IMG/VR virus record: IMGVR_UViG_2534682108_000014
Location: 1-14,290 of that record
Length of the DNA: 14,290 bases
Source of the DNA: a virus
Lineage: Duplodnaviria; Heunggongvirae; Uroviricota; Caudoviricetes
Reading direction: 5' to 3' (one strand)
The notes under the pieces were generated by a model. The model was not told where the DNA came from. It did no database searches and was given only the letters and a program-made list of their open reading frames with translations. Shown here one piece after another: positions 4,456 through 7,840 of this stretch (position 1 is the first letter of the stretch; each line of letters begins with the position of its first letter). A program made the translations under genes and the position numbers.

Positions 4456-5335
4456 CGTGTTCACCCTCACGAACTTTCAGGTAGGTATTATCGTTAAGCA
4501 GGAAATCAAATCCCTTTTTGTGCCAGACGGTTCCGCGTTGATGGTTTGGACGCTCTTCGAACATCCATCGGCAATTTTCGCCTACGTAGCTCAAATAATT
4601 TCTCCAGTCCTGCATCGTGAACCCATGCCCGTCAAGCTGGCGGGTTATCACTCCGGCTTTGCGCCAGAACGTTCGGATCTGGTTTTTACGCTTGTCATTC
4701 AGTGCGCGGATTTTTGGCGCTTCAGGAAGGATTTCGTGGTAAGCATCGACAACATCCTGACAGCTAACGGAAGGTTTTTTCTTGTCAGACTTTTTGTCTG
4801 CTGCGGTACTCTCTAATACGTCAGTATTAGAGATATTATTTATATTATTGTTTATGGACAACCGTTGGACAACCGTTGGACAATCTCCGCTGAGAGCCGC
4901 GCCATTACTGGTGTTTGCGTTGGGCAACCGTTGGACAACCGTTGGACAATTTTTTGCCTGAAAATCGTCATATTTAACGATTGTAAACAGGCTAAATTTC
5001 TTCCCCATCGAGCAAATATTAAGCATACCTTTCGACTCAAAAGTCCGTAATAAGCTCCGAACTTTGTTGTCGGGGATGAATGTTTCTCTGACCAGCGACG
5101 GGCGTCCAGTTATCATCTGACCGCGATCAACAGTTATCGGCCCGATATCCGTATTGACGACAGTAGATTCGTGATTAGCCTTGAGGATTAAGTGAAGCCA
5201 AAGATGTACTGCCTGAGAGTCCTTATAGAGCCTGCTGTCCATAAACTGGCGGTGTATAGAGACATACCCCATACTGGATGCCTCCTGATGTTGTACAGGG
5301 TTATGCCTGTAATCAGCTAACTTAACGACGCCCAT
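4445..5335 (-). CDS. Replication initiation protein, lambda O-like (P22 gene 18-like), 296 aa, containing the origin
   Basis: Sits immediately upstream of the DnaB-type helicase; RBS AGGAGTG before ATG 5335. The coding sequence carries ori-type iterons, translated as the repeated peptide CPTVVQRL. Family assignment is by organisation plus recollection of O/gp18 proteins. Confidence 0.85.
   Translation of the reverse strand: MGVVKLADYRHNPVQHQEASSMGYVSIHRQFMDSRLYKDSQAVHLWLHLILKANHESTVVNTDIGPITVDRGQMITGRPSLVRETFIPDNKVRSLLRTFESKGMLNICSMGKKFSLFTIVKYDDFQAKNCPTVVQRLPNANTSNGAALSGDCPTVVQRLSINNNINNISNTDVLESTAADKKSDKKKPSVSCQDVVDAYHEILPEAPKIRALNDKRKNQIRTFWRKAGVITRQLDGHGFTMQDWRNYLSYVGENCRWMFEERPNHQRGTVWHKKGFDFLLNDNTYLKVREGEHDDR
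4815..4950. repeat. Replication origin: AT-rich tract (4815-4852) plus six approximately 11-bp iterons GGACAACCGTT in two clusters (4855-4887 and 4922-4950) inside the O-like gene
   Basis: Direct reading: ggacaaccgtt ggacaaccgtt ggacaatctcc, a 34-bp spacer, then gggcaaccgtt ggacaaccgtt ggacaattttt. Adjacent attagagatattatttatattattgtttat is AT-rich. Layout (iterons then AT-rich, in the O reading direction) mirrors lambda ori. Confidence 0.8.
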
Positions 5336-5483
5336 GTTTCACTCCTGCTTTGGCTAGTCTGTAAACACCAACAAGGCGCTCTGCGAACGCCCTGTTATTT
5401 GCTGCGGCTACCACTAATCCCTCAGGTGAATCAGGGTGTCGAATCTCTTCTTTTTCCTGGTATTTCTTACGACGTTTTGTCAT
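5322..5483 (-). CDS. Small basic hypothetical protein (53 aa) between the cII-like and O-like genes
   Basis: ATG at 5483 with RBS AGGAG 6 nt upstream; translates MTKRRKKYQEKEEIRHPDSPEGLVVAAANNRAFAERLVGVYRLAKAGVKHGRR. Its stop overlaps the O-like start. Below the ORF-track size cutoff, so a manual call. Confidence 0.4.
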   Translation of the reverse strand: MTKRRKKYQEKEEIRHPDSPEGLVVAAANNRAFAERLVGVYRLAKAGVKHGRR

Positions 5484-5517
5484 AATTACTCCTGTGGATT
5501 GATCCAGTCTTTCTACA

Positions 5518-5796
5518 TCAGGCCTCGAAGAATTCGCCGTTCTTCGGGGCTTTTTCTTTTGTCAGCATTCTGGCTACTTTCTTAGCCAGTTCCGCCAACT
5601 CCTCGTCTTCAACACCCCATTCAAGAACAGCCAGAAGCATGGCCATCTTTGGGATAAAGCTGTCTTTCCATCGCGAAATTTGCGATTCATTAATCCCTAA
5701 CGCGTCGGCAACCTTTCGCTGACCACGTACAGCAATTCGATTCAGGATGTTGCTTGTAATTGCATTCGCTTTCTTGCGAGTACTTGTAAGTTCCAT
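5518..5796 (-). CDS. c1: CII-family transcriptional activator (P22 C1-like), 92 aa
   Basis: From ATG 5796: MELTSTRKK...GINESQISRWKDSFIPKMAMLLAVLEWGVEDEEL, carrying the conserved CII core SQISRWK...IPK...MLLAVLEWGV. RBS AAGGAAA 7 nt upstream. The track start at 5883 is an upstream extension across the cro-cII spacer. Confidence 0.85.
   Translation of the reverse strand: MELTSTRKKANAITSNILNRIAVRGQRKVADALGINESQISRWKDSFIPKMAMLLAVLEWGVEDEELAELAKKVARMLTKEKAPKNGEFFEA
5522..5560 (+). terminator. Rho-independent terminator on the plus strand, antisense to the 3' end of the cII-like gene (candidate terminator of an OOP-like antisense RNA)
   Basis: GCCTCGAAGAA-TTCGCCG-TTCTTCGGGGC followed by TTTTTCTTTT: 11-bp stem with one mismatch, then a U-tract, on the plus strand only. 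Position is analogous to lambda terminator to. Confidence 0.5.
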
Positions 5797-5810
5797 ATGT
5801 AAGTATTTCC
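5774..5810 (+). promoter_or_regulatory. Candidate PRE (CII-activated establishment promoter) pointing toward cro/c2
   Basis: TTGC-gagtac-TTGT on the plus strand at 5774-5787 matches the TTGC-N6-TTGC CII/C1 site with one mismatch. It lies inside the first codons of the cII-like gene in the opposite orientation, as lambda pRE does. The -10 is weak, as expected for an activator-dependent promoter. Confidence 0.4.
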
Positions 5811-5829
5811 TTAACAAATAAGAAGTTAT

Positions 5830-5847
5830 GCGCATCAACTTATGCGC
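5830..5847 (-). other. Hairpin between nutR and the cII-like gene (possible tR1-like pause/termination element)
   Basis: GCGCAT-caactt-ATGCGC is a 6-bp inverted repeat with a 6-nt loop, followed on the minus strand by a U-rich but interrupted tract. Position matches lambda tR1; the structure alone is weak evidence. Confidence 0.3.
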
Positions 5848-5855
5848 GTTGTATT

Positions 5856-5898
5856 CCCGCATTTCGGCGGGAATGAGGACCATGACTGTTAAAGAGCA
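5856..5898 (-). promoter_or_regulatory. nutR: boxA (5887-5898) plus boxB hairpin (5856-5871) just downstream of cro
   Basis: Minus-strand reading TGCTCTTTAACA (boxA, same core as the E. coli rrn boxA), a 15-nt spacer, then CCCGCCGAAATGCGGG (5-bp stem, GAAA-containing loop). The same boxA core and an identical boxB recur downstream of PL. Confidence 0.65.
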
Positions 5899-5904
5899 AT
5901 TTGC

Positions 5905-6090
5905 TTATGCCGCTTTGCGGTAAGCGCTTTCTTGATACTTCAGGGCGCCAGCTGTAACGACTTCCAGTCGATAGGCGTCTTTCTCTGGGATGACTTCCTT
6001 CCACTGAGAGACTGCTGCGTCGCTAATGCCTAACGCTTTAGCTACAGCACGCTGGGTTCCGAAGTGGTCGATAACATCTTTCTTGTACAT
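5905..6090 (-). CDS. cro: Cro repressor, P22-type (61 aa)
   Basis: MYKKDVIDHFGTQRAVAKALGISDAAVSQWKEVIPEKDAYRLEVVTAGALKYQESAYRKAA matches P22 Cro almost residue for residue as I recall it; HTH QRAVAKALGISDAAVSQW. Divergent from the repressor gene across the operator region. Confidence 0.93.
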   Translation of the reverse strand: MYKKDVIDHFGTQRAVAKALGISDAAVSQWKEVIPEKDAYRLEVVTAGALKYQESAYRKAA

Positions 6091-6104
6091 AGACTCGCTC
6101 CGAA

Positions 6105-6170
6105 ATTAAAGAACACTTAAATTATCCACTAAAGGAATCTTAAGTCAAGTTTATTTAAGATGTCTTAACT
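6105..6170. promoter_or_regulatory. OR region: three 18-bp P22-type operators (6105-6122, 6128-6145, 6153-6170) with PR (minus strand, toward cro) and PRM (plus strand, toward c2)
   Basis: All three sites fit ANTNAAG-N4-CTTNANT: ATTAAAGaacaCTTAAAT, ACTAAAGgaatCTTAAGT, ATTTAAGatgtCTTAACT. Minus-strand PR reads -35 TTGACT (6143-6148) and -10 GATAAT (6121-6126) with 16-bp spacing. The third operator abuts the c2 ATG, implying a short or leaderless PRM transcript. Confidence 0.75.
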
Positions 6171-6821
6171 ATGAAAACTCAATTGATGGGAGAGCGCATT
6201 CGCGCTCGGAGAAAAGAACTCAAGATCAGGCAGGCCGCACTTGGAAAGATGGTCGGCGTGTCTAATGTTGCCATATCTCAGTGGGAACGCTCTGAGACAG
6301 AGCCAAATGGAGAGAATCTTCTCGCCCTGGCTAATGCGTTGAAGTGTTCCCCTGACTATCTGATGAAAGGAGAGGAAAGTCTTTCAAACATTGCCTATCA
6401 CAGTAGGCATGATCCAAGAGGGTCATACCCTCTGATTAGCTGGGTGAGCGCAGGATGCTGGATGGAAGCTGTAGAACCATATCATAAGCGTGCAATAGAT
6501 AACTGGTACGATACAACCGTAGACTGTTCAGAAGATTCGTTTTGGTTGGACGTGAAGGGAGACTCAATGACGGCTCCGGCCGGTCTCAGTATCCCTGAAG
6601 GAATGATAATACTCGTCGATCCTGAAGTAGAGCCGCGTAACGGGAAACTGGTAGTTGCAAAGCTCGAAGGAGAAAACGAGGCAACTTTCAAGAAGTTAGT
6701 TATTGATGCAGGCAGGAAGTTTCTAAAACCACTTAACCCACAATATCCGATGATCGAGATCAACGGAAACTGCAAAATCATCGGCGTAGTTGTCGATGCA
6801 AAACTAGCAAACCTTCCATAA
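6171..6821 (+). CDS. c2: Prophage repressor, P22 C2-type (216 aa), LexA-like autocleavable
   Basis: MKTQLMGERIRARRKELKIRQAALGKMVGVSNVAISQWERSETEPNGENLLALANAL... matches P22 C2 near-identically from memory and has the same length. N-terminal HTH, Ala-Gly cleavage region, and C-terminal S24-type GDSM serine with a downstream lysine. Confidence 0.96.
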   Translation: MKTQLMGERIRARRKELKIRQAALGKMVGVSNVAISQWERSETEPNGENLLALANALKCSPDYLMKGEESLSNIAYHSRHDPRGSYPLISWVSAGCWMEAVEPYHKRAIDNWYDTTVDCSEDSFWLDVKGDSMTAPAGLSIPEGMIILVDPEVEPRNGKLVVAKLEGENEATFKKLVIDAGRKFLKPLNPQYPMIEINGNCKIIGVVVDAKLANLP

Positions 6822-6846
6822 GGGGGCATTCGCCCCTTTTTTTTAT
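6822..6846 (+). terminator. Rho-independent terminator downstream of c2
   Basis: GGGGC-ATTC-GCCCC followed by TTTTTTTT, starting 1 nt after the c2 stop codon. Confidence 0.8.
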
Positions 6847-6887
6847 TTCCTTTAAAAATCAAAGCCAAACTTAAGTTACGAAAGAAA

Positions 6888-6940
6888 ATTTAAGTTTTCT
6901 TCAAAAATACTCTTGACCATTAATTAAAGAGATCTTAAAT
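6888..6940. promoter_or_regulatory. OL/PL region: P22-type operator at 6923-6940, weaker site at 6888-6905, and PL promoter (plus strand)
   Basis: ATTAAAGagatCTTAAAT (6923-6940) is a perfect fit to the operator pattern; ATTTAAGttttCTTCAAA (6888-6905) has one mismatch. PL reads -35 TTGACC (6913-6918) and -10 TTAAAT (6935-6940) with 16-bp spacing, the -10 lying inside the operator. Confidence 0.65.
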
Positions 6941-6986
6941 TTAAGCCATCAGCAGGACGCTGGTAGCCAAACGGAACAGATTGGCA

Positions 6987-7027
6987 GGCTCTTTAACATT
7001 GATGGGATTGTCCCGCCGAAATGCGGG
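6987..7027 (+). promoter_or_regulatory. nutL: boxA (6987-6998) plus boxB hairpin (7012-7027) in the PL leader
   Basis: GGCTCTTTAACA, a 13-nt spacer, then CCCGCCGAAATGCGGG. The boxB is identical to the nutR one on the other strand, and the boxA core GCTCTTTAACA is shared. Confidence 0.62.
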
Positions 7028-7339
7028 AACCAAAGAGTAGTTGGCTTTGGGGTGACGTGAAGTGCAGCTGCACGACGGCAACCGGAAGATAAGCACCCGG
7101 CGCGTCACCGCCAAAGTCAATTCCATAGGCGAAATGCAGCCGCCAAACACAGCCAATGCTGCACATGCAACAGGAGGATTTATGTGAATGCATAACTTCA
7201 AAACCGAGGTTAATTAAATCTCTCGATCCGAGCATTGACCTATTAGGTGGCGAGATGCTCTTTCTGCCCCTCAGTTCGAGGGGCCAGAAACCACTTTGCA
7301 ATCACTATCAATTCCAAAGTTGTTTCATCGGAGGTCAAC

Positions 7340-7612
7340 ATGACAGTAGTCATTACATATCTGGCTGACGATAACGCCAGAAATCGCCGCAGAGCACGCA
7401 GACAGGCTCAACGTGAACAGGCAATGCAAGAGCAGCGACTGACGCGAAAAATTGCGCTAAAGCTCTCTGGTTGCGTCAGAGCAGATAAAGCAGCATCACT
7501 CGGAAGCCTTCGCTGTAAGGAAGAAGATGAACGCAGTGGAAGTATTTGCCTGCCAAACGTAGCCATTTACGCGGCAGGATACCGGAAATCAAAACAACTG
7601 ACGGCGAGGTAA
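7340..7612 (+). CDS. 24: N-like transcription antiterminator (P22 gene 24-like), 90 aa
   Basis: From ATG 7340 (RBS GGAGG): MTVVITYLADDNARNRRRARRQAQREQ... with an N-terminal arginine-rich motif, and a C-terminus LPNVAIYAAGYRKSKQLTAR resembling P22 gp24 as I recall it. Lies downstream of PL/nutL. The track start at 7247 is an upstream extension. Confidence 0.85.
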   Translation: MTVVITYLADDNARNRRRARRQAQREQAMQEQRLTRKIALKLSGCVRADKAASLGSLRCKEEDERSGSICLPNVAIYAAGYRKSKQLTAR

Positions 7613-7615
7613 GTG

Positions 7616-7840
7616 ATGAATCAGACATACATTCCATCATGCTTGAGAAATCTGCCAAAGCAGAAAGCAAAGCCCCGCAAGCAAGCCATAAAGGACGCTA
7701 AGGCAGAGGTTATTGATCAAGCAATACAATTGCTCAGGGAGGAGTTAAGAAGTGGCAAGCTCGAAGGAATGATGATGCCATATCAGCGCGGATATCTATC
7801 GGCGATTAGTAAGTTGGAAGTATTGAAGAGTGAATTATGA
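7616..7840 (+). CDS. Hypothetical protein (74 aa), lysine-rich N-terminus
   Basis: ATG at 7616 begins 4 nt after the N stop, with GAGG 7 nt upstream. Same strand as the PL operon. No family recognised. Confidence 0.55.
   Translation: MNQTYIPSCLRNLPKQKAKPRKQAIKDAKAEVIDQAIQLLREELRSGKLEGMMMPYQRGYLSAISKLEVLKSEL

Follow-up and report, generated by a model that had tools for sequence, protein, structure and literature searches.

HK620-type nut sites are already known as putative elements, having been present in GenBank since 2001. Phage HK620 (RefSeq NC_002730) has two sites annotated, “nutL; putative N-utilization leftward” (GGCTCTTTAACATTGATGGGATTGTCCCGCCGAAATGCGGGA) and “nutR; putative N-utilization rightward” (CGCTCTTTAACAGTCATGGTCCTCATTCCCGCCGAAATGCGGGAAT); the genome paper is reportedly that of Clark et al. 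(2001, J Mol Biol). Sites identical to those described here are found in CUS-3 and N7, and the boxA is annotated in HK140. A full-text literature search with the boxB sequence, in DNA or RNA letters, gave no match; the terms “HK620” and “boxB” co-occurred only in a paper on epsilon34, in which these sites are not considered, and no published test of an HK620-type N/nut pair was found in the open-access literature.

The DNA analyzed here (the window, 14,290 nt in its entirety) belongs to a P22-like coliphage, of which it represents the immunity and early region in inverted orientation with respect to the usual lambda map. Its closest records are N7, IME10, JEP4, CUS-3, and Gally, at 96-99% identity, and its c2-cro-c1 segment shows about 83% DNA identity to P22. 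The features that frame the two sites are the following:

5518..5796, minus strand: c1/cII activator, 92 aa (Pfam Phage_CII, E 2.6e-42, profile 1-91 of 91), the first gene downstream of nutR
5905..6090, minus strand: cro (P22_Cro, Pfam PF14549, E 8.7e-28)
6121..6148, minus strand: pR-like promoter (TTGACT, 16 nt, GATAAT), predicted to drive cro-nutR-c1
6171..6821, plus strand: c2/cI repressor (HTH_3 and Peptidase_S24)
6820-6839: terminator hairpin after c2/cI
6913..6941, plus strand: pL-like promoter (TTGACC, 17 nt, TAAATT), predicted to drive the nutL-N transcript

The two promoters point outward, and the pL-like one aligns with the annotated pL/OL region of HK620. The original prediction proposed a repeat pair sharing one boxA core and one 16-nt boxB, with the second copy on the plus strand at 6987-7027. 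Both elements do occur exactly twice, and the second copy lies where it was placed, extending over 6987-7028. The 11-mer GCTCTTTAACA is present at 5887-5897 (minus strand) and 6988-6998 (plus strand), and the number of matches is still two when one mismatch is allowed, against a shuffle mean of 0.32. The 16-mer CCCGCCGAAATGCGGG is found at 5856-5871 (minus strand) and 7012-7027 (plus strand), again with no further match at up to two mismatches (shuffle mean 0.01; two matches in 0/200 shuffles). Since the left copy resides on the minus strand, 5856-5898 as written is the reverse complement of nutR, and the two sites point apart as an inverted pair diverging around the immunity region. Their components are:

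5853..5898, minus strand: nutR
5898->5890, minus strand: nutR boxA, UGCUCUUUA
5889->5875, minus strand: nutR spacer, 15 nt, ACAGUCAUGGUCCUC, unstructured
5874->5853, minus strand: nutR boxB hairpin, AUUCCCGC-CGAAAU-GCGGGAAU, with the 16-nt core at 5871->5856
6987..7028, plus strand: nutL
6987-6995, plus strand: nutL boxA, GGCUCUUUA
6996-7010, plus strand: nutL spacer, 15 nt, ACAUUGAUGGGAUUG
7011-7028, plus strand: nutL boxB hairpin, UCCCGC-CGAAAU-GCGGGA, with the 16-nt core at 7012-7027

The minus-strand copy starts 7 nt past the cro stop codon (5905) and lies ahead of the cII start (5796), which identifies it as nutR; the plus-strand copy starts approximately 40 nt into the transcript from the predicted pL and 312 nt ahead of the N start codon, which identifies it as nutL. 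Both are untranslated and on the transcribed strand of the early transcripts. Comparison with HK620 reveals that its nutL is identical to window positions 6987-7028 over 42/42 nt, and that its nutR matches the reverse complement of 5853-5898 at 45/46 positions, the exception being the first base of boxA, which is C in HK620 and U in the window. All of the sequence-level features that define a lambdoid nut site were found. The original reading of these elements as nut sites is supported by their position, the cognate N, the co-variation of boxB with the N arginine-rich motif (ARM), and near-identity with the HK620 nutL and nutR. We consider it highly probable that a P22-like (Lederbergvirus) E. 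coli phage or prophage with an HK620-type N antitermination system is represented here, with nutR at 5853-5898 (minus strand) and nutL at 6987-7028 (plus strand). The pair is real but ordinary.

The region around nutR also shows an annotation discrepancy. The c1/cII protein is annotated as 121-126 residues long in N7 (L004, 1519-1884) and CUS-3 (L001, 1211-1591); in N7 and in the window equivalent (5518-5883) this longer reading frame starts at an ATG within the nutR spacer and reads through boxB. The Phage_CII profile is fully covered by the 92-residue form beginning at 5796, the upstream ATG lacks a Shine-Dalgarno sequence, and the short form is the one annotated in HK620 and P22; the long version is probably a misannotation. 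At 5520-5552 (plus strand), antisense to the 3′-end of c1/cII, there is a strong terminator-like hairpin with 14 bp and a T-run behind it; an oop-like RNA is annotated at this spot in HK629, and the Rfam matches here are sub-threshold. Another conserved hairpin, GCGCAU-AAGUUG-AUGCGC (5830-5847, minus strand), is located 8 nt past nutR, with a U-rich stretch after it; in 26/75 relatives the U-A pair that closes it is replaced by U-G. P22 has an equivalent hairpin, and in HK620 tR1 is annotated directly after nutR.

The 16-mer folds into a 5-bp stem with a loop that, as written, consists of six nucleotides, CGAAAU (-7.8 kcal/mol). The claim of an identical 16-nt boxB is correct, CCCGCCGAAATGCGGG being exact in both copies, and the stem extends past the 16-mer, to 8 bp in nutR (AUUCCCGC/GCGGGAAU; -12.5 kcal/mol) and 6 bp in nutL (UCCCGC/GCGGGA; -10.5 kcal/mol). 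Equal stability was reached in 0/200 shuffles in either case. No U-tract is seen 3′ of either hairpin, which indicates that neither is an intrinsic terminator. We infer that boxB is most simply a 5-bp GC stem topped by a C.U mismatch and a GAAA (GNRA) tetraloop. The P22 nutR boxB (ACCGC-C-GACAA-C-GCGGU) and that of the window (CCCGC-C-GAAA-U-GCGGG) have the stem core CCGC/GCGG in common, and in both the loop is closed by a pyrimidine-pyrimidine mismatch; they differ in the loop, GACAA against GAAA, the window being devoid of the third P22 loop base. In published NMR structures, the boxB pentaloops of lambda and P22 adopt a GNRA-like fold with one base extruded, for which Legault et al. is reportedly the reference; by this analogy the HK620-type loop would be a plain GAAA tetraloop.

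Variants of boxB with another loop-closing base and the same boxA and loop were sought in IMG/VR; the 31 matches are attributable to chance and stemless, with the exception of one P22-type site. BoxB is identical in about 150 copies, with no compensatory changes among them that would support the stem. Rfam reported no nut or boxB family in the whole window at gathering thresholds, nor in 5300-7700 at permissive E-values, where there were two sub-threshold chance matches at the oop-like terminator.

The cognate N gene lies downstream of nutL:

7340..7612, plus strand: N (P22 gp24-like), 90 aa (Pfam N_peptide PF25694, 58.3 bits; cut-off 27.9)
7373-7420, plus strand: N arginine-rich motif NARNRRRARRQAQREQ, residues 12-27, the presumed boxB-binding helix

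The protein belongs to PHROG 271, “anti-termination protein N-like” (E 4e-33), and a GGAGG Shine-Dalgarno sequence precedes its ATG at 7340. Lambda N is intrinsically unstructured (PMC8632103). Comparison of N proteins reveals a mosaic. Those of the window and HK620 combine ARM NARNRRRARRQAQREQ with a P22-like C-terminus (...LPNVAIYAAGYRKSKQLTAR), and in CUS-3 and N7 this ARM is joined to a lambda-like C-terminus; whichever C-terminus N has, all four possess boxB CCCGCCGAAATGCGGG. Conversely, HK629 and VT1-Sakai N proteins contain the window's central and C-terminal sequence, and mEp235 N the central part only; these three phages possess almost the same pL leader as the window, together with the phi21-type ARM TAKSRYKARRAELIAERR, and exactly the boxB segment has been swapped, for UCUCAAC-CUAACC-GUUGAGA. 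In P22, ST104, and phiKp_30, ARM NAKTRRHERRRKLA is paired with boxB GCGCU-GACAA-AGCGC, and lambda has an ARM-boxB pair of its own. The pairing is consistent over seven specificity types. At the level of sequence, boxB type tracks the ARM through mosaic exchanges, even where the rest of N has been replaced.

The same association is observed in a larger sample of 80 loci with an exact ARM NARNRRRARRQAQREQ (76 IMG/VR contigs plus the window, CUS-3, N7, and HK620). The CCCGCCGAAATGCGGG boxB is found at both nut positions in 71/80, the remainder being truncated contigs or rearranged prophages. One such locus (L044; IMG/VR 2595698474_000001) encodes an intact HK620-type N and possesses a single HK620-like boxB, which is broken in the stem by a G->U change (CCCTCCGAAATGCGGG) and has no boxA; a lambda-type nutL (GCTCTTAAAAATTAAGCCCTGAAGAAGGGC) is located 1.4 kb upstream, the positions noted being 1221 and 2629. 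This is probably a rearranged or defective prophage.

The sites are both common and conserved. An exact nutL is present in 491/5,426 complete E. coli genomes (about 9%). Among species-representative genomes it was found in one contig of an Escherichia sp. and in two from MAGs binned as Bacillales and Segatella, and that scan revealed no wider taxonomic range. The fetched phage and IMG/VR loci provided 79 nutL and 75 nutR copies, in which 11/11 boxA and 16/16 boxB positions are invariant. All six variable sites in nutR fall in the spacer. The nominal P, about 0.001, assumes independent sites and copies and is only indicative, the copies being closely related.

Mosaic junctions were noted at the very edges of the sites (window positions 5898 and 7030; relatives L005-L084). 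The sequences of alternative cro alleles differ right up to the base ahead of the nutR boxA, and in seven relatives an alternative leader starts about 2 nt past the nutL boxB. Since the junctions coincide exactly with the edges, the nut sites seem to be shared homology for module exchange.

With regard to function, we infer from homology with lambda and P22 that both sites would be bound by N and Nus factors and be active in antitermination. Transcription from pR and pL would leave the immunity region in opposite directions; host NusB:S10 would bind the linear boxA of each nascent RNA, and the arginine-rich helix of the phage N (residues ~12-27) would bind the boxB hairpin. NusA and NusG would join the complex, which would stay on the RNA polymerase, and the polymerase so modified would read through downstream terminators into the replication/late and the recombination/lysogeny genes.

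The boxA core GCTCTTTAACA (11 nt) is exact in both sites, fits the consensus CGCUCUU(U)A, is linear, and lies 5′ of the hairpin; the conventional 9-nt boxA is [U/G]GCUCUUUA in nutR/nutL. The E. coli rrnG boxA-spacer string is ugcucuuuaacaauuua, the same as the 11-nt core of the window (PMC2724277), so that the window 11-mer GCUCUUUAACA corresponds to the rrnG boxA plus the first bases of the rrnG spacer. The designation “rrn-type” in the original prediction is correct, given that the core equals the rrnG string ugcucuuuaaca (PMC2724277). Such a boxA is also found in P22 (CGCTCTTTAAC), phi21-type phages (GCTCTTTAACA), phiKp_30, and AP005153. On the basis of these alignments an rrn-type boxA is the rule in the non-lambda lambdoids (P22-, phi21-, and HK620-type), with lambda as the exception. 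NusB:NusE binds the rrnG boxA with an affinity of 5-8 nM, versus 80-90 nM for the lambda nut boxA (PMC2800207), from which the boxA of the window would likely bind NusB:S10 more tightly than that of lambda.

Directly 3′ of the nutL boxB lies a further conserved element:

7031..7061, plus strand: hairpin CCAAAG-N9-CUUUGG, then boxC-like GGGGUGACGUG

The boxC label is one that we presume from the lambda nut sites. Lambda, P22, HK629, and HK97 possess an equivalent hairpin and a G-rich run (GGGG/GGG) after nutL. The minimum free energy (MFE) structure had suggested that boxA is sequestered by the AAAGAG just past the nutL boxB. This idea was discarded, as z is only -0.9, the centroid structure of the full leader does not contain the pairing, AAAGAG is not kept as a partner in phi21-type leaders or in seven IMG/VR variants, and it is part of a different conserved hairpin.

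In the N leader, a cassette of ~204 nt occupies 7129-7332 (plus strand), flanked by ...CGCCAAAGTCAAT and CATCGGAGGTCAACATG. HK620, N7, and HK629 lack it, HK140 has it at 99% identity, and CUS-3 possesses a 72%-identical allele. Each allele includes a strong Shine-Dalgarno sequence with ATG-TGA after it (AGGAGGATTTATGTGAAT), plus a hairpin showing one compensatory pair change (GCCCCTC/GAGGGGC at about 7271-7289 versus CCCCG/CGGGG); neither strand has a U-tract. In 58 relatives the leader measures 98 to 552 nt, which marks the N leader as an insertion hot spot. A long-range stem spans 7046-7128 (plus strand), in which CUUUGGGGUGACGUG pairs with CGCGUCACCGCCAAAG; this is kept in HK620, N7, and HK629, and the fold of the whole leader has z = -4.2. 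The lambda N leader contains a stem processed by RNase III, of which the 7046-7128 stem may be the counterpart.

To compare spacer lengths, one rule was applied to all phages, with the spacer counted as the nucleotides that follow [N]GCUCUU(U)A and precede the base at which the boxB stem starts to pair. The results are:

Lambda: 9 nt (nutR) and 8 nt (nutL), in agreement with PMC2724277
P22, ST104, phiKp_30: 9-11 nt
phi21-type (HK629, mEp235, VT1-Sakai): 10-13 nt
Window, HK620, CUS-3: 15 and 15 nt; 18 and 16 nt if counted to the 16-mer
Stx1-converting phage AP005153: 23 and 23 nt
H-19B/HK97/Min27-type nutL: about 24-25 nt, approximate because the boxA there is degenerate

The gaps of 13-15 nt originally reported are accurate as distances from 11-mer to 16-mer (15 nt in the left copy, 13 nt in the right); as the boxB stem runs beyond the 16-mer, both spacers are exactly 15 nt when measured from the 9-nt boxA. 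The description “unusually long spacing” is only partly right. The spacing exceeds that of lambda and of the P22- and phi21-type phages, but is below that of AP005153 and the H-19B/HK97 type, and the earlier count had set an 11-nt core for the window against an 8-nt boxA for lambda. In the copies compared, a single-stranded spacer of 15 nt is a fixed trait of the HK620 specificity class, intermediate among lambdoids.

The spacers themselves have an MFE of 0 kcal/mol and form no hairpin, whereas those of AP005153, Min27, and HK97 contain hairpins of -4.3 to -5.2 kcal/mol. Their length is constant in roughly 150 nut copies. The nutR and nutL spacers have ACA.U.AUGG...U. in common (9/15 positions), and the sequences are homologous across specificity types (nutL ACAUYGAYGG..., nutR ACAGUY.UGG...). 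Leader alignment of the window nutL with the phi21-type reveals one 2-nt indel adjoining boxB. An AUU motif has been tied to NusA binding (PMC2724277); the nutR spacer contains no free AUU. As a side issue, GGGAUUGUCCC in nutL was considered as an H-19B-like hairpin competing with boxB and rejected, as it comprises 4 bp, is not predicted, and has no counterpart in nutR.

How much should be read into these peculiarities? It is possible, though we regard it as doubtful, that the HK620-type N/boxB pair constitutes a distinct RNA-recognition class, characterized by the GAAA tetraloop and C.U mismatch, an ARM without the aromatic residue of lambda N, and a 15-nt spacer that is functionally required; if so, the spacer may place NusB:S10 and N-NusA on the polymerase. 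Were the pair orthogonal to those of lambda, P22, and phi21, it would serve as a fourth natural module for peptide-RNA tethering and as a means of testing the spacer tolerance of the N antitermination complex.

We think it unlikely that the long spacer and rrn-type boxA specify a different antitermination complex, with altered Nus requirements or geometry as reported for H-19B N. A spacer about twice that of lambda and of invariant length, with 9/15 positions common to the two sites and the NusA-linked AUU not free in nutR, would fit such a complex, and a precedent is offered by Neely & Friedman (2000; cited in PMC3202840), whose title states a reduced host-factor requirement for H-19B N. The spacer lengths, however, form a continuous series (8-9, 9-11, 10-13, 15, then 23 or more), and the H-19B hallmarks are missing, the boxA being perfect and invariant and the spacer MFE 0 rather than -4.3 to -5.2 kcal/mol. 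Furthermore, one central N segment is found with spacers of 12-13 nt (HK629/VT1-Sakai) and of 15 nt (window), the same nut sites occur with N proteins of two C-terminal modules, P22-like (window, HK620) and lambda-like (CUS-3, N7), and by alignment the nutL spacer differs from the phi21-type by the 2-nt indel only. Since a single central segment serves both spacings, and a single type of site both C-termini, nothing points to a special assembly, and altered Nus assembly at the window sites is somewhat disfavored.

That the repeats are recombination-boundary inverted repeats of the immunity cassette, or terminators or processing sites, instead of RNA signals is very improbable: the two copies are inverted and flank c2-cro, relatives diverge starting exactly at the 5′ boundary of the nutR boxA and a few nucleotides past the nutL boxB, and the CUS-3 record annotates a “boundary sequence” here, but any conserved signal in a mosaic phage would be expected to behave so, and this behavior does not account for the co-variation between hairpin and N ARM, the missing U-run speaks against an intrinsic terminator, position and strand suit transcripts and not DNA sites, and the HK620 authors themselves annotated the elements as nut sites.

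Taken as the nutR and nutL of an HK620-type system, the pair is of significance mainly for annotation. It settles the assignment of the two copies to nutR and nutL in an inverted window, and places a common E. coli prophage type (that found in about 9% of complete genomes) in the lambdoid series of nut spacings.

The relationship to other known systems can be defined by element. The rrn element has the order boxB-boxA-boxC, its boxB is dispensable, and N is not involved (PMC8632103); the window sites differ, with the order boxA-boxB and a location in a phage early operon with an N gene. With the H-19B/HK97/933W type and AP005153 the window shares a long boxA-boxB distance, and with AP005153 also a GAAA-loop boxB (UGGCU-GAAA-AGCCA), the ARM there being RRRARR. 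The H-19B/HK97-type boxA is degenerate (GGUGAAUAU), HK97 and Min27 having GGUGA(A)UAU at this position, whereas the window has a consensus boxA and unstructured spacers; neither a degenerate boxA nor a spacer hairpin (0 kcal/mol) was observed at its two sites. The N proteins of H-19B/HK97/Min27-type phages carry the ARM 12-RSRRRER-18, the RSRRRER motif being that given for H-19B (PMC3526286).

Lambda and the window have in common the order boxA-spacer-boxB, the placement relative to pL/N and cro/cII, a GNRA-like purine loop, and a hairpin followed by GGG(G)UG after nutL. The lambda boxA, CGCUCUUA, has one U fewer than that of the window, and binds NusB:NusE about 10-fold more weakly than does the rrn boxA (PMC2800207); the lambda loops are the pentaloops GAAAA and GAAGA, and lambda N is unrelated to the window protein outside the ARM pattern. 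P22 is closer, with a consensus (rrn-like) boxA and an N of the gp24 family with a common C-terminus. It differs in its ARM (NAKTRRHERRRKLAIERD versus NARNRRRARRQAQREQ), in spacers of 9-10 nt versus 15 nt, and in having nutL and nutR boxBs unlike each other, whereas the two boxBs of the window are identical. The phi21-type phages (HK629, VT1-Sakai, and mEp235) possess the identical boxA core GCTCTTTAACA, a 6-nt loop, homologous spacers (nutL ACAUYGAYGG, nutR ACAGUY.UGG), and a pL leader nearly identical on either side of boxB; the boxB itself (UCUCAAC-CUAACC-GUUGAGA), the ARM (TAKSRYKARRAELIAERR), and the spacers of 10-13 nt are unlike those of the window. HK620 differs in lacking the ~204-nt insertion in the N leader and in carrying its own cI/cro between the sites, where the window has a P22-like c2/cro; it shares the gene orders pL-nutL-N and cro-nutR-cII, and its N protein is 93% identical to that of the window, with an identical ARM.
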